DNA of 64,000 nucleotides from Escherichia coli (GTDB lineage: Bacteria > Pseudomonadota > Gammaproteobacteria > Enterobacterales > Enterobacteriaceae), in NCBI RefSeq assembly GCF_030384885.1, contig NZ_CP128613.1, one strand, 5' to 3'. Numbering within the stretch: the stretch's first letter is position 1; each line of letters opens with the position of its first letter. Shown here piece after piece: positions 53,077-64,000 of the stretch. The position numbers and the translations under genes were made by a program. The notes below the pieces were generated by a model. The model was not told the origin of the DNA, ran no database searches, and saw only the letters and a list, made by a program, of their open reading frames with translations.

Positions 53077-53406
53077 ATGAGCAATCTGAATCCATGCATG
53101 ACGTGTGGTGCCTGTTGTGCATTTTTCCGCGTCTCTTTTTACTGGGCCGAAGCCGACGATGCTGGCGGTACCATTCCCGCCAGGCTCACTGAACAAATAT
53201 CCCCTTTTCACCGATGCATGAGCGGTACCAATCAGAAAAACCCCCGATGTATTGCCCTTGCAGGAACACCGGGCAAAAATGCCTGCTGCACGATATATAA
53301 AAATCGATCGTCCACGTGCAGAGAATTCGCCATGTCTGGTGAGAACGGAGAAGTCAATGAGGCTTGCAATCGTGCAAGAGCTAAATACGGGCTGACACCG
53401 TTATAA
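53077..53406 (+). CDS. ykgJ: Cysteine-rich putative Fe/Zn-binding protein
   Basis: 109 aa; CMTCGACC and further Cys clusters. Confidence 0.85.
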
Positions 53407-53428: not shown

Positions 53429-53464
53429 GCCCCGCCAGCTATAATCGCGGGGCTTCGTTTTTCA
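53429..53464 (+). terminator. Rho-independent terminator of ykgJ
   Basis: Stem GCCCCGC / GCGGGGC followed by TTCGTTTTT. Confidence 0.65.
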
Positions 53465-53611
53465 GGGATAACAAAACCCGAAACTTCTTCCATCTGCCAG
53501 CAACAATGCCTCTTCCTCTATAGTGTTCTCCGGATCTACAGCATCCTGAAGTAGCGCGATGTACTCACTGGCTATCTGCATCAGAAAGTTAAAAACAATG
53601 TTTTTAACCTA

Positions 53612-53640
53612 TAAAAATGGCGCTGTATTTGCGCCATTTT
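53612..53640. terminator. Bidirectional terminator-like hairpin (AAAAATGGCGC … GCGCCATTTTT) 3' of yagU
   Basis: Perfect stem flanked by an A-tract and a T-tract. Confidence 0.5.
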
Positions 53641-53654
53641 TATCATTCAATGCA

Positions 53655-54269
53655 TTATCTGTTTGAGCCTAAAGGGATCTCAGGGTCTGGCTCATGAGTA
53701 ATTCTGTTTCGTAAATCTCTGCGAATAATTTCAATGGACCAGAACCAGACTAAATGTCCAAAAATTTCAGAAACATTCTCATACCACGGGAGATCAAACA
53801 GAGGTGGCGTCAGTCCCATGAGAGGGAATGAAATCATATGAACAAAAAGTTGGGCTAAAGCACCTGCCAGTAAGCCCTGCCAGAGTTTAATTTTTGGAAA
53901 TACTTCAGCGACCACACAATAACCGACAGCAAACACTATCGAAAAGATAATGTGCGTAACACCAACCCAGTTAAAGACATGCCCGGCAAAGGTATAAACA
54001 GCCGCATTGGGATCTGTCAGCCCCAGCCAGTCTCGAAGAAAAATATACGGAGGATTGAGAAAATTACGGGAGCAATCAATTTGCCCAGCAGCCCTGATTA
54101 ATGATTCCGGGCCACACGCTGCATTAAACATATCCACCGGGCTACGTGGCGGCAATGGAACTTCAGCCCCCCACTTCACAAATGCGGAAACAACGCCAGC
54201 AATTAGCCCAATGAATGCAGCAAGACCATAACGTCTGCGGTTCGGTGGAGTTTGTTCAAATATATTCAT
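53655..54269 (-). CDS. yagU: Inner-membrane protein (DUF1440)
   Basis: 204-aa multi-TM protein. Confidence 0.85.
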
Positions 54270-54331
54270 ATTTACCCTGTTTGTTTCATTATGTTGTACA
54301 CCTCTTCAGGAGTATTCATAAAACAAGATAA

Positions 54332-54500
54332 ATGTAAAGAACTGTATTGTTTTGTATAATGCAATGGTGACTAATCGCCAATTAATATAAGCACCATCAT
54401 TTCTCCATATTTTTATGTTAGAAGTGACAAGGAGAAATGTAATGTTTCTCTCAGAGAATATAAATCATTCCTTTTGCCCACCTTAATGGTGGGCTTTTTT
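54332..54500 (+). ncRNA. Candidate short transcription unit: promoter (perfect -10 TATAAT at ~54355), 14-codon ORF (MFLSENINHSFCPP, 54442..54486, SD AAGGAG) and intrinsic terminator (54476..54500)
   Basis: TATAAT preceded by TG; then an RBS-plus-mini-ORF whose stop sits inside a GC-rich hairpin (GCCCACC-TTAAT-GGTGGGC) followed by TTTTTT. Confidence 0.35.
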
Positions 54501-54865
54501 ATGCAAAACCTGAACACCCTGTGGTATTCCCCTGGCATTATCACTTTCGCGATTAACCAACAGCCAGACCAGCAAACACGCCACTACAGGCACAGCAAAA
54601 TCCATCAGGCTTGCCACACCCCATGCGTGCGGCTCAAAGCCGCCCCGCCATGGCATATTAATCCGCTTACCATTTTCGAACAGCTGATTGGTTTAGTCCG
54701 GTGTTTCCCTGCTTGCACTTAAAAATGAGCGGATGGGAAACTCTCGAAATGGTTCGTCGATATGCTCACCTTTCAGTCAGGCATTTCACCGCGCACGCGA
54801 GCAAAATCAAAGGCACATGAGGAGAATGTGGTTGACTTAAAAACGAGGAAACTTATTGATTTAAA

Positions 54866-54912
54866 TGGTGCCGATAATAGGAGTCGAACCTACGACCTTC
54901 GCATTACGAATT
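54866..54912 (-). tRNA. Pseudo-tRNA: 3' ~47 nt of a tRNA-Thr (thrW-like) = att core of an integrated element
   Basis: The minus strand reads …ATTCGTAATGCGAAGGTCGTAGGTTCGACTCCTATTATCGGCACCA (anticodon arm with CGU, T-arm GGTTCGACTCC, acceptor 3' strand + CCA); the 5' half (GCCGATA…) is absent, so this is a fragment. Confidence 0.75.
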
Positions 54913-55282
54913 ATAAGAATCCGTTTCTAATTCAAAGCATTACCACATCAACACTGCGCTCACACGTCCCACCACATCAAAACATGTAAAGCCTTGCAAG
55001 CCATTGTGAGGCCTTATGTGTCTCAGTTTTGTCCCACCTTGTATTACGACTTGCATAACCAATGAAGATAAACGTGACGACAAACGACGCAGCAGTCTTC
55101 TTTTCTTTCACACTTTCCCCACTCAGCATGCATACCTTCTACTATAACTGTAGTGAATGTCTGTTATGAGCGAGGAGCGGACTATCTTTCTGTGCTAAGC
55201 ACAGAAGTTTAAATTAATAAATAGAGATTAAGATGTTTATTGGTTACATTGATATTTATAATTTGATTGCCTTGAAATTCCT

Positions 55283-55322
55283 AAGCCGAATTCATGACGT
55301 CTTCATCACATGAATTCGGCTT
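55283..55322. terminator. Perfect 14-bp-stem hairpin (AAGCCGAATTCATG … CATGAATTCGGCTT) 3' of the 447-aa cargo gene
   Basis: Exact reverse-complement arms around a 12-nt loop, ~30 bp beyond the gene's stop. Confidence 0.55.
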
Positions 55323-55351
55323 ATGCATAATACTAAGTTGGTTTTATTAAG

Positions 55352-56695
55352 TCATTTCTTTGCCGCGCTTTTATTGCACTTCTTACAGCCTTCAATCAAT
55401 TTTTCAGTTATTATATAATAATAAGGAATGTAAATGTTTAACCCGCAAGTTTTAATCGAATCGAAAGCAAGAACTTTCACAATGGATTCTTCTCCATCTT
55501 TCTCCATTAGCAATATATCACTTAAAGGCAAATCATTAGGATTGTAAATCCTCACATCGCCAGGCTGTCTTTCATAGGCTTCGATGTCATCACCTGGTTG
55601 GCCATAGGCTAAATGAGTGGCTTTAATCCAGTTTATTGGTTCAGCATTTTGACACCAGGAGATTATTTTTTCTAATTTTTCAGGTGTGTAAGCTTTTACA
55701 TAATCTCCATGTTTTTCACATCTACCTAGTTCTGAAAAATGGCCCAGGGTGTATTCATAAGAATAATCACCAGCAGTCAATGGTAGTCTAAAGTATTGCT
55801 GAGGCAATGCCTTCTGGACTTTGGTTTTACTCAGCAAATTAAAGGTGATATCATAAAGTTGATATAGACAAACACCCTCTCGATCTGGATATCCATAAGG
55901 CTTGATGTCAGAAAGCATCTCAATATCAGAATTATAAACACTTGCATAATCATCACTTCCAAACATGAAAAAACCTTTTGATAGAATGAATATTGCATTA
56001 GGAAGAACGTTTTTTTCAAAATTCTGCGAGTGAGTTTTTATTTCTTGTACTATGTCCATCCAATCCATATCAGTATCATAGGCGAAGATAATTCCAAAAC
56101 CATTAGTCTGAATTCTCTCCTCTGAATGTATAAATATGTTCTGATTTATACCATGTTTCTTTAGTTTTTTGAATGAGCGGATATTTTCGAAAGCACTTTT
56201 CAGTTCTTTTTTTGTTAGTTTTGACTTAACCTGAATCACACCATAGCAGTACTCCACAGGTAAAACCTCAAAAATTTCCTGTCGCTGCATAAGCGAAAAT
56301 GAATTAAAAGCATCATAAAAAAGAATGTCGATTTCATTACTGAGATGTCCTGAGGTTGACGCTACACGGACACTTGATTTTGAGATGGCATAGCTTTGCG
56401 GTAAGAGTTTATTTTCATTGAAAAAGCATCTTAAGAGTTCCTCTCTGACAGTACCAACATCTCTTGGATGCTTAATATCTTTCGATATTTCAAAATCTTG
56501 AAGCATTTTCCTCTGTAAGTGAATGAACTCCCTTTCAAGACCATAAAATTCTTTATCTTTAGATCTCAGTTTGCTTGCACGAGAAACTTGATCGGATATC
56601 CATTCCTTTGTGCGAGACTCTCTCTCAGCAAAATCATCACGTTGTTTTTTTACAGCACCGGTCAAGCGTTTTCTTGTGTTTTCATTATCGGACAT
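55352..56695 (-). CDS. Hypothetical 447-aa protein of unknown function (AT-rich cargo gene; possible PD-(D/E)xK-like nuclease motif)
   Basis: Long uninterrupted ORF in visibly AT-rich DNA, K/E-rich N-terminus, a segment (…EIDILFYDAF…EYCYGVIQVKSK…) reminiscent of a restriction-endonuclease-like fold; stands alone between a terminator and the repeat/invertase region. Confidence 0.7.
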   Translation of the reverse strand: MSDNENTRKRLTGAVKKQRDDFAERESRTKEWISDQVSRASKLRSKDKEFYGLEREFIHLQRKMLQDFEISKDIKHPRDVGTVREELLRCFFNENKLLPQSYAISKSSVRVASTSGHLSNEIDILFYDAFNSFSLMQRQEIFEVLPVEYCYGVIQVKSKLTKKELKSAFENIRSFKKLKKHGINQNIFIHSEERIQTNGFGIIFAYDTDMDWMDIVQEIKTHSQNFEKNVLPNAIFILSKGFFMFGSDDYASVYNSDIEMLSDIKPYGYPDREGVCLYQLYDITFNLLSKTKVQKALPQQYFRLPLTAGDYSYEYTLGHFSELGRCEKHGDYVKAYTPEKLEKIISWCQNAEPINWIKATHLAYGQPGDDIEAYERQPGDVRIYNPNDLPLSDILLMEKDGEESIVKVLAFDSIKTCGLNIYIPYYYIITEKLIEGCKKCNKSAAKK

Positions 56696-57095
56696 AAATT
56701 AACCTTAAGTTGATAAGTTTTGTGGTGAATTTATAAAGCCTGAGGGATAAACATTTATAGTCTATAAGTTACTATTTATTTGAGATAGTAAGCCAATTTT
56801 ATTAGATGAAGAAACGTTCATAACCTCCTCAACTACGTTTCAATCGGCAACATCGGAGAAGTACACTTTGACAATATATAGCATATTGAAGCAGCTGTAA
56901 CTTAGAGCGCGTACACTCAAGATTTCCCGCTGCGGTGATGGCGGACGACTGCGTTTGATAACTCATTTCCCTCACCAACTATCGGACCTGTTCCTGATTG
57001 ATTATCACATTATAATGTGAGCAATGTCCGCTCCTAGCACATAGCAGTTCTAGAGACAATGGCGTAAAGTCATGGAGAATCGGTGGGAGGATATT

Positions 57096-57227
57096 CAGTT
57101 TCATTCATGCCGAAATACGGTAAAATCTATAACAGATAGAAATCATTCAATATTCGCACTATCAGAAGCTGGCCAGCCAACCGCGCACGATTTTGCATAC
57201 GACATGCTACGGTTTCATTTATCTCCG
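57096..57227 (+). repeat. Copy B of the ~130-bp imperfect direct repeat
   Basis: See copy A (52924..53053). Confidence 0.5.
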
Positions 57228-57814
57228 ACCGGAAACTTCTTATACAGTGTCGATACACCAACATCATAGATGATCTCCACCTTCTGGCGAGGAACGCCTG
57301 ATGCAATTAATCGCCCGGCCTGCGCCCTTTGTTCTGGTGTAAGTTTGGGACGACGTCCACCAATTCGTCCCTGTGCGCGAGCAACTTCCAGTCCAGCTTT
57401 TGTTCGTTCAACAATCAGTTCTCGTTCCATTTCAGCCAGGGCACCCATCACATGAAAGAAAAAACGCCCCATCGGTGTGCTGGTATCAATAGCATCCGTC
57501 AGGCTGCGAAAATTAACGCCACGTTCGCGCAACTCCTCAACCAGAATGACCAGATGGACAAGCGTGCCGGGACCGGGTTTATTCAGCGCTTCAATCAGGC
57601 GATCGCGCTGGTCAAAGCAGTCATCTCCCACCACATAAGCTGTGATGGACGGGCGGAAAGTGACTTTTCCCAGATCTTCGGTATAGGGCTTGTCGCGGTT
57701 CGGGTATTCATGTGTTTCCACACGGCGACCGGTTCCCGCACTTTCTTCTTCAACCTTAAACGGCACACCTCGAAATGACGCATCCTGAAGCCTGTCTTTC
57801 CACGTCATATACAC
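57215..57814 (-). pseudogene. Pin/Hin/Gin-family serine invertase C-terminal fragment fused to an unrelated N-terminus
   Basis: The C-terminal ~115 aa (…ELRERGVNFRSLTDAIDTSTPMGRFFFHVMGALAEMERELIVERT…RRPKLTPEQ…STLYKK) match the invertase core and HTH; the N-terminal ~85 aa show no resolvase catalytic-Ser region. Confidence 0.6.
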
Positions 57815-57821
57815 TCCGAAA

Positions 57822-57850
57822 ATAAAAAAGCCACCTATTAGAAGGTGGCC
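57822..57850 (-). terminator. Rho-independent terminator of the lipoprotein-like gene
   Basis: Stem GCCACCT / AGGTGGC followed on the minus strand by a T-tract (TTTTTATTTT). Confidence 0.6.
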
Positions 57851-57869
57851 TTGTAATGAATTTTATTAA

Positions 57870-58400
57870 TTAGCGAGTCAGAAACAACGAATCTTTATAC
57901 TTTTGCTGTTGTTCATTTAAATACTTAGCTGTTTCATCGCTGGCAAATGGAAATATTACCGTATTTTTAGGCATGGTAATTTCTTTTTTGTCCAGCGTCA
58001 GAGTAAACATAGGAACATACTGAGCAGAGTAACGCACCGCAGAAACGAGCTCTAGTTTAGACTCTTCAATAACACTTAAATTATCCAGGCTAACTTTCTC
58101 TTCATCTTTTTTCTTTGACGCATTTAAAGTTTTTATTACTTTATTTAATTTCTCCTGAAAATCCTCCTTAAAGTTTTCAGGATTGCCGTCGACAACAAGA
58201 ATCTGTTCACCCTGATTATCTGGAAAAATAATCTTTGCACTTATCAATTTATTTTCTTTATAAACATCACCAAGTTTTATGGCTCCTCCAGATAACTGAA
58301 TAATATGTTCATCTTTAAAGGAGATGTTGCCAGAGATTATGAGAGATGAAAAAATAGCCGCTGCTCCAAGAATTACACTTGCTGTGATATAGCCTTTCAT
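57870..58400 (-). CDS. Hypothetical signal-peptide/lipoprotein-like protein (AT-rich cargo)
   Basis: 176-aa ORF with an N-terminal hydrophobic segment (MKGYITASVILGAAAIFSSLIISG), Lys/Glu-rich, in visibly AT-rich DNA, with its own terminator. Confidence 0.6.
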   Translation of the reverse strand: MKGYITASVILGAAAIFSSLIISGNISFKDEHIIQLSGGAIKLGDVYKENKLISAKIIFPDNQGEQILVVDGNPENFKEDFQEKLNKVIKTLNASKKKDEEKVSLDNLSVIEESKLELVSAVRYSAQYVPMFTLTLDKKEITMPKNTVIFPFASDETAKYLNEQQQKYKDSLFLTR

Positions 58401-58491
58401 TTTTCGCCTATTAACATTTTTCTAAATGTGCATTAATTCTATCACTCTATTTATGACTTACAACCAGCAATACATGTGAGGGGAATCCTGG

Positions 58492-59623
58492 CTACCAAAA
58501 TCGGGTATAGCCAACATCGTGATTTATATCAATGCCACTGGAGCGTGTTTCCGTAACCCGCATACCTGGTGGCATATTTATAAATGATACCTTGATCTCA
58601 CCATCAACTTTTGGCGCGGTAGCTTTATTAATCATGAAGGGATTCGGGCCTGTGGCATCGGAGGCGTTGTTTGCCTGAGCCGGATCCACCGCCGGATAAG
58701 GAGTGTATCCCCGTGCCGGTATTCCCGTCTTCGATATTGTTGAAGGTGGCGCGATCGGTGTTCTGCACCATGTGCAACGGCACCCGGAACAGACGACAGA
58801 TTTCTTCAAGCTGAAACTTGCGGGTTTCCAGGAACTGGCTGTCCTCGGCGTTCAGCGCCATCGACTTCCAGTCCAGCCCCATCTCAAGGATCATCGGGCG
58901 GTGAGCATTACCAAGCCCGGTGTGACGCTCCTCAAAATCTTTCTTCAGGCGCTCATAAGCCTGATCCGACAGCGTCTGTTCTGTACGCAACACACCCGAC
59001 GTCACCGCGCCATTGCTGAACAGTCTGGCCCCGTGCTCTTCGGTCGCAGCTGCCAGCGATATTGCCTCACGGGCATAGGCGATGGGATTCAGTCCCACCA
59101 GACCGTCCAGCGTCAGCGTGCGCACATGCCAGATATCCTCCTGGCTCAGTACATCCGTGGAGCCATCCGGGAATGTGACCTGATAGACCGGCTCCCAGCT
59201 ACTGTTAAGCTTCGGTACCACACAGCCGGGATCGACGGGCAGCAGTTCAGCCACTTCGCCAAATGCTTTCACTTTGTAGGCGTAAAAGTTTCCCCGCAGG
59301 CACAGACAGGTGACCACCAGCTCCCAGAACTCCTGCGGCGTCATATAGCCATTGGGATGCGTGGAGATCAGCTTATGCAGACGTTCGCCAGTGGCTCTCT
59401 GCTTCAGGCTGCCGTTCAGGTGATACAGGTTGCAGGGCAACATCCCGACCGACTCCGCCAGCACCCTGACACAGGAAAAAACCGCCGTCAGTCGCATGGC
59501 CCGCTGGCTGCTGATCTGCTTTCCGGTATAGGTGTCGTAGGACAACCCGATGGCATCCGCCAGCTCTGCTGGCGTGGTCACCGGTGCGTCACTTTTTCGT
59601 TGAAATAATCCCGAAAAGAACAC
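58492..59623 (-). pseudogene. Phage portal protein (HK97 family), frameshifted and truncated
   Basis: ORF 58628..59623 (331 aa) is portal-like until ~58720, where it runs into a low-complexity tail; the continuation lies in another frame (58492..58809). Confidence 0.7.
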
Positions 59624-59805
59624 TATTTACCTCCGCCGACAGACAGCTGTGTACGATCGAGATATCGCGCCACCAGCCACGACCAGAACAGGCACAGCGC
59701 CCCGGCAACAACAAAACCCGCCGGGGGATAAATCAGCCAGGCACCATATGCCAGCAAAAGCGCACCCAGCACGCCCACCAGAGGCGCGAGAATCAGCATG
59801 ATCAT
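59623..59805 (-). CDS. Small hydrophobic protein between portal and terminase
   Basis: 60-aa ORF with two predicted TM helices; stop overlaps the portal start. Confidence 0.4.
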
Positions 59806-59816
59806 AATTACCTCAG

Positions 59817-61550
59817 TTAAAGCGAGCGGATCCCGTAGGACTCAATGTGGTCAGACAGCGTGTCTTCTTTCTCGTACAGCATGGCTCTGCCAACCGCCAT
59901 AATCAGCGCAACTGCACCATCGATTTTGTTTTCCGCCTGCTCTTTGACGGGTTTCACCACATCATCGTTACCCGGAATGGTTTTGCCGACCACGTTGCCG
60001 ATACACCAGGTCATGATGGGATTGCCGTCATGATGAAAGCGCCCCGATTCAATTGCCGCTTCCAGCTCTTTCATCGGGTCGGACATGTTGGTGTAGTTCT
60101 GAATGATAGTGATGGGGTTCAGGTCTTCATCAGCAAGGTCATGTGACAACCCGGTCGCCCCGAAGGGGTCGATGGGTGACTCACTGACCGGGCTGATTTT
60201 GTTCGCCGCTTTGGCCTCCTCGAGGATGTAGCGATAATCCACCTCCGCACCATCGGTAACGGTCAGAACGCCCATTTCCACCCATTTCTGAAAGCGTTCG
60301 GCTGTCCGTCGATCTTCATTTTTCTCGACGCTGTACACCGTGTCATACGGTACCCAGAAACGCGGGGCCACACTGTAGTAATGCGTTTTACCGTCAATCT
60401 CGCGGGTATAAAGTCGCGCCATGCTGTTCATATCCAGCTTACGCGCCAGGTCAAAGGCCAGAATGCACGGCTGCCCCTCGAACTGCTCAAGAGTCAGTGA
60501 TTTATCCTCGCATCTCTGCCAGCTCACCAGGTTGAAATACGCCGAACGCGCCGACACCCAGATATTGAGGTGTTTTGTTTTAAAGACGTTTGCCAGACGG
60601 GCGTTATTTTTCGCACGTTGCTGCTGGCTTAACAAAAACTCGCGATAAACCGACACACCGATATTCGGGTTAGCTTTTTCAAGTACCTGCGGGTCGGTCC
60701 AGTCGTCGCCTTCGTCAACGGTATAGATGATCCCGAACAGTTCATCGTTGGGCACCGAGCCGTTGAGCATCTCGATGACTTCCCGCCGTTTGTCGTAGCA
60801 CGGCCCCTCAATGTTGTACCCGGCGGTGGTAATGGCCCACATCAGTGGCTGGCGTCGCGCCCCCATCCCGGTAAGCATCGTGGTGTAAAGCGCATCTGTG
60901 GCGTGCTCGTGATATTCATCCACCACCGCACAGTGGGGTGATGAACCATCACCGGGGTTACCGATCAGCGGTTCAAACCGCGCACCATCCTCCGGACGGT
61001 TCATGTTTGAGGCGTTAACCTCAATCCCGAACGCTTCCGTCAGCATGGGTGTGCGTTTACACATCAGTCGTGCCGGACGAAAGACTTCCCATGCCTGTTT
61101 CTCCGTCGTGGCACCGGAATACACTTCCGCGCCGAACTCGTTATCACAGGCAAAACAATACAGGGCGACACCGGCAGAGATTGCCGATTTGCCGTTCTTA
61201 CGGGGGATTTCGGTATACACCTCACGGAAGCGGCGCAGCCGGGAGCCTTTATTGACCCAGCCAAACGCGCAGCAGATCACAAAGAGCTGCCACGGCTCCA
61301 GCGTGATGGGCATCCTCTTAAATGCCCACTCACCCTTGGTGTGCGGCAACAGCTGAATAAATTTCGCGGCCCGTTCAGCCAGGTCCTTGTCGAAGCGGTA
61401 ACGAAACGACTTACTTTTTTCCTCCATCAGGTCATCAAGATGGCGCTGGCAGGCCTGAATCACAAACTGGCAGGCCACAATCTTTCCGTGCACGACATCA
61501 CGGGCATACTGATTGGCAGCATTTACGTTGGGGTAAGATTTCCGGCTCAT
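59817..61550 (-). CDS. Phage terminase large subunit
   Basis: 577 aa; ATPase Walker-type region (…EIPRKNGKS…) and C-terminal nuclease region; overlaps the small-subunit gene by 4 bp. Confidence 0.9.
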
Positions 61551-62050
61551 GATTCGATGATTTTCAGAAACGGGTTAGTGGCTTTCTTCTGCCCCGCCAG
61601 GCCAATCAGACGCTGGCGGCTGCTGGGGTCGAGTCCGAGCATTGCCCCCGTACTGCTCATCTCGGACTCCTGTTCTTTTTTGGCGGTCAGCTCCGGATTT
61701 TTGACCATACCGCCCATTGCACCGGTGATGGTGTTGCCCTGTCTGGCAATATTTTTCACGGCACGTCGCCAGAACTCGTAGGCCACGCACCACCGCTCAA
61801 GCACCGCGAGGTCAGTCACGCACAGCAGGCCCTGACCGCAGAGTTCTTTAGTTGTCAGTTGCCACATGATCGTGGCGAGAGGGAGATCTTCTTCAGCGAA
61901 CCACTCCGGTGGCTCAACACCTTTGATGGGCGTAAAAACAGGTTCATCTTTATTCAGGGCTCGCTTGCCGGGGTTTCCGGCCAGCGCCTTGCGCGCCGTT
62001 GGCTTGGGGCGACGCCCGGAACGCCCCGCCGTTCCAGCCATATGCGGCAC
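61547..62050 (-). CDS. Phage terminase small subunit (P27/HK97-type)
   Basis: 167 aa, basic N-terminus, immediately upstream of the large subunit. Confidence 0.8.
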
Positions 62051-62166
62051 TCCTGGTTAAATTTCATTTTTCGCGGGTATAAAAAAACGATGGGGCGGGC
62101 AGTCCGGAAGACGTCAGGTCACAGGGATTTGACCCGCCCCTCCCCTCTGGCAGTGGGAACTGGTTC

Positions 62167-62517
62167 TTACTTCAGCCGTTCACGGGCCGTCTTCGCCTTA
62201 TGACACGGCCAGCACAAACTCTGCAGATTACTGTCGACATCAGTGCCGCCATGCGATTTAGGGATGATGTGGTCAACGGTCTTCGCCTCACGCACCACAC
62301 CAGCACGCAGACATAACTGACACAGGCCTTTGTCACGCTTCAGGACACGCGCGCGGATACTGTCCCACTTCGAACCGTAGCCGCGCTGATGACGGGATTG
62401 TCCAGGTTTGTATTGCTTCCAGCCTTCGCTTTTGTGGCTTTCGCAGTAGCCTGAAGGGTCCGTGGTTGTAAAGCGGCAGCCGCGAACACGGCAGGCTTTT
62501 GGGGTTCGTGGGGGCAT
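62167..62517 (-). CDS. HNH endonuclease (packaging-associated)
   Basis: 116 aa; HNH motif (…VDHIIPKSHGGTDVDSNLQSLCWPCHKAKT…) with a zinc-finger cysteine pair; typical position before terS. Confidence 0.85.
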   Translation of the reverse strand: MPPRTPKACRVRGCRFTTTDPSGYCESHKSEGWKQYKPGQSRHQRGYGSKWDSIRARVLKRDKGLCQLCLRAGVVREAKTVDHIIPKSHGGTDVDSNLQSLCWPCHKAKTARERLK

Positions 62518-63041
62518 ATGTACTCCAATGAAGAAACCAGCGAAATAGCTGCCTTCATTCGTAGTAAACCTTTTTCATCAACGCAGTAATGGATTCTTTG
62601 AAGAGTCGCGATCAATACAACTCACTAATGGAGAGACTTGTCTCACGCATGAGACAAATTTCCCGTTTGATTTAATGGACACTATAGAGGGACAGAATGC
62701 CTTCCTCACTCGAATCACATCAATTAAGGAGGTTCAACATGTTTCATTCCACAAGTCATCAGGCTGTAATTATGGCAGCATCAGTTTGTGCCAAAGACCT
62801 TTTCCGCTTCACTTTGAGCCTGATTCATTTCTACCTGACCGGCTCGCCTCTATCTTTTTAATCCCCGCTTTATCCAAATTGCATTGCCATAATGCCGACA
62901 ACACACTGACATTCAAATCCAGACTACCTCCAATAGTCTGACCGTACACCTATATAGTTTTAATTTTCATCAATCCATTTAACTATCGTTTAATTGTTGT
63001 CACATAGGATTCTGCCGTTTTTAACAATGCAGGATAATAAG

Positions 63042-63335
63042 ATGAAAAAAATGTTGTTTTCTGCCGCTCTGGCAATGCTTATTACAGGATGTGCTCAACA
63101 GACGTTTACTGTTGGAAACAAACCGACAGCAGTAACACCAAAAGAAACCATCACCCATCATTTCTTCGTTTCGGGAATTGGACAGGAGAAAACTGTTGAT
63201 GCAGCCAAAATTTGTGGCGGCGCAGAAAATGTTGTTAAAACAGAAACCCAGCAAACATTCGTAAATGGATTGCTCGGTTTTATTACTTTAGGCATTTATA
63301 CTCCGCTGGAAGCGCGTGTGTATTGCTCACAATAA
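63042..63335 (+). CDS. bor: Bor-like outer-membrane lipoprotein
   Basis: 97 aa from MKKMLFSAALAMLITGC (lipobox); sequence essentially as I recall lambda Bor. The track ORF starts earlier at 62994. Confidence 0.85.
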   Translation: MKKMLFSAALAMLITGCAQQTFTVGNKPTAVTPKETITHHFFVSGIGQEKTVDAAKICGGAENVVKTETQQTFVNGLLGFITLGIYTPLEARVYCSQ

Positions 63336-63366
63336 TTGCATGAGTTGCCCATCGATATGGGCAGCT

Positions 63367-63828
63367 CTATCTGCACTGCTCATTAATATACTTCTGGGTT
63401 CCTTCCAGTTGTTTTTGCATCGTGATCAGCCTCTCTCTGAGGGTGAAATAATCCCGTTCAGCGGTGTCTGCCAGTCGGGGGGAGGCTGCATTATCCACGC
63501 CGGAGGCGGTGGTGGCTTCACGCACTGACTGACAGACTGCTTTGATGTGCAACCGACGACGACCAGCGGCAACATCATCACGCAGAGCATCATTTTCAGC
63601 TTTCGCATCAGCTAACTCCTTCGTGTATTTTGCATCGAGCGCAGCAACATCACGCTGACGCATCTGCATGTCAGTAATTGCCACGTTCGCCAGCTTCAGT
63701 TCTCTGGCATTTTTGTCGCGCTGGGCTTTGTATGTAATGGCGTTATCACGGTAATGATTAACCGCCCATGACAGACAGACGATGATGCAGATAACCAGAG
63801 CGGAGATAATCGCGGTTAATCTGTTCAT
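63367..63828 (-). CDS. Rz: Lysis protein Rz (i-spanin)
   Basis: 153 aa, N-terminal TM anchor and coiled-coil region; start ATG overlaps the endolysin stop (ATGA). Confidence 0.9.
63426..63608 (-). CDS. Rz1: Lysis lipoprotein Rz1 (o-spanin), embedded in Rz in the +1 frame
   Basis: 60 aa with lipobox LVVVGC and proline-rich [15 protein letters not shown], entirely inside Rz. Confidence 0.85.
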
Positions 63829-64000
63829 ACCTCAATCTCTCTGACCGTTCCGCCCGCTTCTTTGAATTTTGCAATCAGGCTGTCAGCCTTATGCTCGAAC
63901 TGACCATAACCAGCGCCCGGCAGTGAAGCCCAGATATTGCTGCAACGGTCGATAGCCTGACGAATATCACCGCGATCAATCATCGGTAAAGCGCCACGCT
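63825..64000 (-). CDS. R: Endolysin R (lambda-type lytic transglycosylase), C-terminal part only; the gene continues past the window end
   Basis: Manual translation of the minus strand gives …[56 protein letters not shown], matching the lambda R C-terminus. Confidence 0.8.

Follow-up and report, generated by a model that had tools for sequence, protein, structure and literature searches.

The unit upstream of yagU and its features

In the 64,000-nt stretch of Escherichia coli contig NZ_CP128613.1 analysed here (the window), an earlier note had described a compact unit at 54332 to 54500, made of a promoter, a mini-ORF and an intrinsic terminator. The unit is located directly upstream of yagU, on the opposite strand, and is treated below as a candidate small RNA gene. 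The promoter hexamer, the Shine-Dalgarno (SD) sequence, the 14-codon ORF, the hairpin with its T6 tract and the overlap between the hairpin and the ORF stop were all recovered where that note had placed them. The features of the unit and of its divergent neighbour are the following, in window coordinates:

53655 to 54269, minus strand: yagU, encoding an acid-resistance inner-membrane protein, the divergent neighbour (ORF list and RefSeq)
54331 to 54356, no strand assigned: conserved block ATGTAAAGAACTGTATTGTTTTGTAT, with three TGTA repeats and, on the minus strand, the yagU -35 (TTTACA, 54338..54333); a minus-strand promoter-like site in the scan
54355 to 54360, plus strand: candidate -10 TATAAT, lineage-specific, with a predicted transcription start site (TSS) at ~54367
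54394 to 54414, plus strand: pyrimidine-rich conserved block CCATcATTTCTCCAtATTTTT (consensus CCATnATTTCTCCAyATTTTT), with 19/21 nt identical to Escherichia albertii
54397 to 54427, plus strand: predicted hairpin HP1 (RNAalifold helix), the block at 54394-54414 being its 5' arm and loop
54429 to 54434, plus strand: SD-like AAGGAG, 7 nt before the ATG
54430 to 54511, plus strand: 82-nt core, from the SD to just past the T-tract, nearly invariant in E. coli and without counterpart in K-12-type strains
54431 to 54451, plus strand: predicted hairpin HP2 (GGAGAAAU / GUUUCUCU; RNAalifold consensus), which would sequester the SD and the AUG
54442 to 54486, plus strand: mini-ORF MFLSENINHSFCPP, 14 codons, with ATG at 54442 and TAA at 54484-54486 (sequence and ORF list)
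54476 to 54500, plus strand: intrinsic terminator called by the terminator scan, with the hairpin GCCCACC-TTAAT-GGTGGGC at 54476-54494 and T6 at 54495-54500

Distribution and origin

Relatives were found by a YagU scan of species-representative genomes, followed by BLAST of the upstream region. Homology runs through the hairpin in L045, a divergent genome labelled E. coli (85% identity, ending at ~54511), and in E. albertii L014 (70% identity, ending at ~54505). A pattern scan of metagenomes supplied a second sequence for each lineage, L106 of the L045 type and L104 of the E. albertii type. Outside Escherichia, a covariance model built from the Escherichia alignment gave 0 matches at the other-genus yagU loci searched, and the terminator scan found no divergent terminator upstream of yagU in other genera. 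In Pseudocitrobacter, a hairpin upstream of yagU has an A-tract on one side and a T-tract on the other; it looks bidirectional and its sequence is unrelated to the unit.

The two halves of the unit have different distributions in E. coli. The half with SD, ORF and terminator is found in 1299 genomes, always as a single copy, which corresponds to about a quarter of the complete E. coli genomes, and the sampled carriers belong to phylogroups B2 and F (536, Nissle 1917, ST131, CE10, SMS-3-5). The half with the putative promoter is near-universal, with 4842 of 5426 complete genomes matching part of the query. K-12 homology runs from yagU to 54429, followed by the paoA upstream region from 54430 onward. 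MAFFT aligns TTCCTTAT...TGGTTTTTGCA past this point, yet the identity in the ORF region is 16/46 and we took this alignment as chance. By this comparison, the 3' half of the unit is lost from K-12-type strains, which retain the upstream half.

The DNA past the hairpin differs in each lineage. B2/F strains have a phage remnant and thrW, L045 has another integrase fragment and then fliE, and E. albertii has ~360 nt followed by a pliG-like gene, a bor-like gene and phoE. In E. albertii (L104 3665-4580; L014 1-200), thrW-proA-proB is replaced by two genes whose translations we read as a lysozyme inhibitor of pliG-like (ycgK-like) type and a lipoprotein of bor/iss-like type. The unit is thus the last conserved feature before the variable thrW hotspot. 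The position at a boundary of core and acquired DNA, as the earlier note had it, holds true, since a 3' fragment of thrW begins 366 nt past the T-tract with prophage beyond it.

A prophage origin of the ORF and hairpin was considered and rejected, because 54428-54552 has no phage match and the linkage to yagU is kept across lineages with different DNA beyond. The IMG/VR match to the hairpin is only the same chromosomal flank, present on a prophage contig, and is uninformative on origin. Judged from these alignments, the unit is ancestral Escherichia DNA and not prophage DNA.

The terminator hairpin

The terminator stem has 7 bp, 6 of them G-C pairs, closing a loop of 5 nt that contains the stop codon of the mini-ORF. 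Its folding energy is -15.2 kcal/mol (z = -4.3), and 0 of 200 shuffles were equally stable. The U-tract exists on the plus strand only, and the terminator is unidirectional since the minus-strand reading of the hairpin has no U-tract.

The hairpin and T-tract occur at the identical position upstream of yagU in B2/F E. coli, in the divergent 'E. coli' lineage and in E. albertii. RNAalifold paired 98% of the helix cells in the 7-sequence alignment. In L104 the stem is GCCCGCU/AGCGGGC, an intact 7 bp in which both partners of two pairs differ (A-U to G-C and C-G to U-A), while the L014 stem holds an A.C intermediate. The loop varies freely between lineages and the T-tract is retained. The scan call, the z-score and the compensatory pairs bear out the claim of a compact unit ending in an intrinsic terminator. 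On the evidence of this pattern of substitution, 54476-54500 is under selection and a strong candidate for a genuine intrinsic terminator.

Constraint over the core

Conservation is not limited to the stem. Of the 1299 E. coli genomes with the core (54430-54511), 1279 have it without a single difference, while the adjoining 82 nt match the window fully in 1 genome and at 86-95% identity in the remainder. In nine B2/F sequences, 1/82 core sites segregate, against 38/349 flanking sites (Fisher p = 0.004). Strain 536 matches the window at 82/82 core positions despite a divergence of 27% at four-fold degenerate sites of yagU. The same four-fold divergence from the window is 33% for L045 and 53-55% for E. 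albertii, and the identity from SD to T-tract falls from 100% in 536 to 86% in L045 and 66% in E. albertii. The spacer at 54357-54392 shares 14/37 positions with E. albertii (38%). These figures suggest that ~100 nt including the terminator behave like a constrained small gene.

The segment does not serve a neighbouring gene as its 3' UTR or terminator, the case that the earlier note had named as refuting its reading; RefSeq overlaps it with a single annotation, a phage-gene remnant on the opposite strand. This annotation, a 57-aa minus-strand 'hypothetical protein', was considered as the cause of the conservation and rejected, since it is what is left of a phage gene cut short, and indels alter its frame from strain to strain.

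The unit could instead be a functionless relic, a chance promoter-like single-nucleotide polymorphism (SNP) beside an orphan terminator left by an old rearrangement at the thrW hotspot. The region is indeed a mosaic of phage gene, integrase and tRNA fragments, the TATAAT is lineage-specific, and junk DNA is retained in the same ~1295 genomes, so that retention alone proves nothing. However, a relic would not be expected to show compensatory stem changes or polymorphism markedly below both flanks, nor to be shared by E. coli, the divergent lineage and E. albertii, which have diverged too far for neutral sequence to be aligned. We consider this explanation very improbable.

Shine-Dalgarno sequence and mini-ORF

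The ATG of the mini-ORF is present in all lineages, and the sequences around it vary. The SD is AAAGAG in ST131, LS4 and L045/L106, and AGAGGA in E. albertii. L045 and L106 keep an ORF of 14 codons (MFLSEIINHSFCPP followed by a stop). In L045 it shows TCA->TCT, ATA->ATT and CCT->CCC as synonymous changes, TAA->TAG at the stop and one replacement (N->I), and two of these changes fall within the loop of the hairpin. In E. albertii, both sequences lack 1 nt at codons 10-11, after which the frame passes the terminator, reaching 47 codons with no stop before the T-tract. In the B2 strain Z1323HEC0477 (L010), a 24-bp deletion (equivalent to 54442-54465) drops the ATG and seven codons, eight in all, and leaves the hairpin intact. 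The mini-ORF as a preserved feature is therefore not sustained, being kept in one diverged lineage, frameshifted in another and deleted within B2.

An ATG TAA start-stop ORF was also observed at 54436-54442 (ATGTAATG), between the SD and the ATG of the mini-ORF and overlapping the latter. It is not conserved, reading ATATGATG in L045 and ACACAATG in E. albertii.

Selection could nevertheless act on a small protein, the 14-residue MFLSENINHSFCPP, alone or within a dual-function RNA, or leader translation across the hairpin could modulate termination. Such a gene would be consistent with the good SD (AAGGAG) 7 nt before an ATG that is never lost between lineages, with the mostly synonymous changes and single N->I of the L045 ORF, and with 7 of 10 substitutions in codons 1-10 falling at third positions (manual count), a weak coding hint. 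A ribosome would cover the 5' arm, given the stop codon in the hairpin loop, and in E. albertii the pliG-like gene lies ~360 nt downstream in the same direction. The E. albertii frameshift after codon 10, the weaker SD of ST131, LS4 and L045, the B2 deletion that keeps the hairpin, and the predicted pairing of SD and AUG all count against it. So does the lack in E. coli of a downstream gene in the same orientation, where only phage and integrase remnants are found, and inspection revealed no antiterminator longer than 4 bp and no tandem regulatory codons. We regard selection on the peptide as unlikely, and the mini-ORF is probably incidental to the conservation of this sequence.

The earlier note had offered a small RNA, a leader-peptide attenuator or a type I toxin-antitoxin-like small protein. 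The first best fits the conservation, and the other two fail. An attenuator would lack its downstream gene in E. coli, as well as an antiterminator (by inspection, the best upstream complement to the 5' arm has 4 bp) and tandem codons, and in the predicted folds the terminator forms on its own. A type I toxin-like protein is contradicted by the 14-residue length, the lack of a hydrophobic helix and the single copy, and no pair of opposite-strand promoter and terminator was evident in the scan. The peptide is mostly polar, with no hydrophobic run of transmembrane length.

The promoter region

The description of a TATAAT preceded by TG stood in part. Both elements are present, but the TG (54353-54354) abuts the hexamer (TGTATAAT), which is not the canonical extended -10 TGnTATAAT, and the hexamer is a lineage-specific SNP on a motif of the yagU promoter. 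The best -35 is ATGTAA, with a 17-nt spacer and 3/6 consensus matches, and because of this low match the consensus scan did not call a promoter. Promoter-like sites in the region number 4, compared with 5.2 +/- 2.5 in shuffles, so there is no enrichment.

Among the aligned sequences, TATAAT is found only in the window and in 2013C-4282, the sole complete genome that is 100% identical over this part of the window. The -10 is TATAAC in the other B2/F sequences and in K-12, TATGAT in L045/L106 and TATTGA in E. albertii. In a position weight matrix (PWM) scan, TATAAT scores 8.5 bits against 4.2 for TATAAC, and it is the top site of the region in this window only. Between the candidate -35 hexamer and TATAAC, both included, K-12 and the B2/F strains do not differ. 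The best sigma-70 site of E. albertii by PWM is elsewhere (CTGACA-18-CATATT, with the -10 near 54406), and inspection found no conserved position of a sigma-E promoter across lineages. From these results, the candidate promoter is plausible only in the lineage of this window.

Part of the same sequence belongs to the yagU promoter. Positions 54339-54356 keep 17-18 of 18 nt in all Escherichia lineages, and the block ATGTAAAGAAcTGTATtgtttTGTAT supplies the TG and the 'TAT' of the candidate promoter. The yagU-promoter block is recognisable upstream of yagU in Citrobacter youngae (40-bp BLAST match). Its assignment fits the K-12 yagU TSSs at U00096.2 302183 (Cappable-seq) and 302198 (Kim 2012), which correspond to ~54301 and 54286 on the minus strand of the window. 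Among the K-12 Cappable-seq entries listed round the locus, all are plus-strand, and the SMRT-Cappable-seq supplement has no entry for the unit.

Three TGTA-containing repeats (TGTAAAGAAC TGTATTGTTT TGTAT), 10-11 bp apart, are found from Citrobacter to Escherichia upstream of the yagU -35 and overlapping it. They look like a direct-repeat site of response-regulator type for the acid-induced yagU promoter.

Predicted RNA structure and interpretation

Two stem-loops are predicted between the candidate promoter and the terminator. In HP1, 89% of the alignment cells are paired and one pair is changed on both sides; its UUUCUCC is complementary to GGAGAAA of the SD region. In HP2, 94% of the cells are paired, with one-sided changes only. 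The only common polymorphism, G->A at 54431, turns AAGGAG into AAAGAG and weakens the SD, yet it replaces a G-U by an A-U pair in the predicted HP2. The 3' module consists of CCUUUU, the terminator hairpin and a U-tail, which is U6 in E. coli and U5 in L045.

With moderate confidence, we propose that the unit is an undescribed, Escherichia-specific small RNA gene closed by the terminator and diverging from yagU. Selection more likely acts on the RNA than on the 14-aa peptide, although the RNA may have a dual function, because of the frameshift in E. albertii, the polymorphism that weakens the SD while improving a pair, and the location of SD and AUG within a predicted hairpin. The product would be mainly a non-coding small RNA of at most ~135 nt, made up of the predicted HP1 and HP2, a single-stranded stretch rich in A/U and the U-tailed terminator. 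Transcription of the unit, and its start in strains without TATAAT, are inferred. In the lineage of this window, a C-to-T change creates the consensus TATAAT, and the RNA would start near 54367 and have ~134 nt.

Several observations weigh against this proposal. Most E. coli have TATAAC, the PWM scan found no plus-strand sigma-70 site at a conserved position across lineages, and the conserved promoter region of yagU itself accounts for the TG...TAT of the putative promoter. Between the starts of yagT and yagU, the K-12 TSS table of Kim 2012, which covers both strands, has none on the divergent strand. The comparison covers three diverged lineages; outside the terminator, covariation is limited to a single pair in HP1, whose helix is partly broken in E. 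albertii, and HP2 shows none. In Rfam 15, every family stays below its gathering score: the matches to the unit (JA04, MicA, Hrs1, RyhB) have 19.6-22.8 bits against gathering scores of 41-81 and are at chance level (JA04 22.8 bits vs 81, MicA 22.1 vs 41). The literature searched for yagU, small RNAs, thrW and the exact sequences contained nothing on the unit. To these are added the third-position substitutions of the mini-ORF and the U-tail, whose 5-6 nt are short for a classical Hfq-binding small RNA (typically at least 7 U).

Pairing of the unit with the yagU 5' region was also evaluated and discarded, the energy being -17.8 kcal/mol against a shuffle mean of -19.1 kcal/mol, no better than chance.

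Some of these points would also suit a terminator with no discrete RNA or peptide, which would stop stray or divergent transcription from the strongly acid-induced yagU promoter region before it enters thrW and the islands. Under this explanation, the other conserved bases would be distal yagU regulatory sites or a context for terminator efficiency. The compensatory changes are confined to the terminator, the upstream conserved block belongs to the yagU promoter region, and the unit is exactly at the core/variable border in every lineage; the missing plus-strand promoter and the missing divergent TSS in K-12 point the same way. However, the 45 nt upstream of a simple terminator need no invariance, yet 54430-54475 is as invariant as the stem, and it is still 68-71% identical in E. 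albertii compared with 38% for the neutral spacer. In addition, K-12-type strains live without the terminator. We find this explanation rather unlikely, and the proposal of a small RNA gene is preferred.

A more ambitious version of the small RNA proposal is held only tentatively, and we find it doubtful. The gene would be Escherichia-wide and possibly dual-function, overlooked because the pao-carrying strains, including K-12, lost it. It would stand back-to-back with the acid-induced yagU promoter, with overlapping -35s and acid co-regulation, and the C-to-T change would make it constitutive in this STEC-like lineage.

Neighbouring genes and the prophage junction

The other features around the unit are the following:

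53077 to 53406, plus strand: ykgJ, downstream of ecpD and ecpE (both plus strand)
54483 to 54656, minus strand: RefSeq 'hypothetical protein' WP_010360345.1, 57 aa (61-aa variants in B2), overlapping the hairpin
54512 to 54549, no strand assigned: 38-nt spacer confined to B2/F E. coli, with the Escherichia-wide homology on one side and the phage homology on the other
54550 to 54682, minus strand: remnant (C-terminal part) of a lambdoid-phage membrane-protein gene, with 88% nt identity to phages HannyBb and PhiR49_2
54697 to 54808, plus strand: integrase pseudogene fragment (C-terminal part), then thrW-type attP homology; a RefSeq pseudogene in the 100%-identical strain 2013C-4282
54866 to 54910, minus strand: 3' 45 nt of the tRNA-Thr thrW, which mark the prophage junction as an att duplicate, from alignment to the intact thrW of L001 and L002
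55352 to 56695, minus strand: DUF6602 protein, 447 aa, in prophage DNA beyond the thrW fragment

In 2013C-4282 the gene order is yagU, the unit, the integrase pseudogene fragment, an intact tRNA-Thr (thrW), proA, proB and phoE. ARAGORN found no intact tRNA in the window. The segment at 54682-54864 corresponds to an integrase 3' end and a thrW-type attP; here the int-attP region of HK542, mEp213 and SfX is matched at 74% identity. The 'hypothetical protein' at 54483-54656 shares 32/36 aa with residues 63-98 of a 99-aa phage protein. It is the truncated phage gene (the C-terminal 36 residues of a lambdoid-phage membrane protein) read from an internal Met into unrelated DNA and the hairpin, and is likely an annotation artefact or a pseudogene.

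A prophage in thrW occupies 54866-64000 of the window, with the att duplicate, the DUF6602 protein, a pinE-type invertase and tail genes. This prophage end is mosaic, since 0 complete E. coli genomes in the collection cover at least 80% of 54905-58900 in one piece.

The yagU products of the window and of E. coli 536 (L005) differ by 1 amino acid, yet the genes diverge by 27% at four-fold degenerate sites. For a within-species comparison, this value (33% vs L045) is a very deep split of alleles. It suggests ancient yagU alleles or an introgression at the hotspot, with the protein under strong purifying selection.

Significance

If the unit is transcribed, it would be a conserved regulatory RNA of dominant clinical ExPEC lineages (ST131, 536-like, Nissle 1917) and of E. 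albertii, but missing in K-12, the reference strain of nearly all small RNA discovery. It would then be a strain-variable regulator beside an acid-resistance gene, at the thrW island hotspot, with a natural promoter-up allele. If it is not transcribed, it would be an ordinary, well-kept boundary terminator. The locus would also illustrate how rearrangement can split an RNA gene, K-12 retaining the upstream half and losing the ORF and terminator. The 24-bp deletion of Z1323HEC0477 is a natural allele bearing on the relevance of the mini-ORF.

Comparison with known systems

Type I toxins are hydrophobic, membrane-active peptides, usually of 18-50 aa (Ibs/Sib, Ldr/Rdl, TisB/IstR, ShoB/OhsC, Zor/Orz). 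The unit resembles type I toxin-antitoxin loci in its intergenic position close to mobile DNA and in its small ORF preceded by an SD. It differs from them by its 14-aa polar peptide with no transmembrane stretch, its single copy and the lack of an evident antisense RNA gene.

Among attenuators, trpL encodes a 14-aa leader, and in pyrBI leader translation across the hairpin suppresses termination. The unit shares with these leaders the arrangement of a (here candidate) promoter, an ORF of ~14 codons and an overlapping intrinsic terminator. Unlike them, it has no downstream structural gene in E. coli, no antiterminator pairing and no runs of regulatory codons.

A known small RNA that also flanks yagU is EcsR2 (Rfam IS009, RF02111), encoded in the yagU-ykgJ intergenic region. 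Raghavan et al. 2015 (PMC4350180) confirmed it by RNA-seq and 3' RACE. In the window, 53449-53649 on the minus strand is a full-length IS009 match, with 199.6 bits against a gathering score of 117. EcsR2 is on the other side of yagU, has an unrelated sequence, is present in K-12 and has a confirmed transcript, whereas the unit is a predicted gene absent from K-12. Both are restricted to Escherichia and are intergenic beside yagU, at a locus prone to rearrangement.

SgrS/SgrT and Spot 42/SpfP are dual-function small RNAs, trans-acting enterobacterial RNAs with an embedded small ORF. The unit departs from them in its U-tail of 5-6 nt and in an ORF that is not conserved in E. albertii, and its RNA is putative. 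It is similar to them in its predicted length (~80-135 nt), its stem-loops and A/U-rich stretch, its GC-rich terminator with a U-tail, and its very short ORF preceded by an SD.

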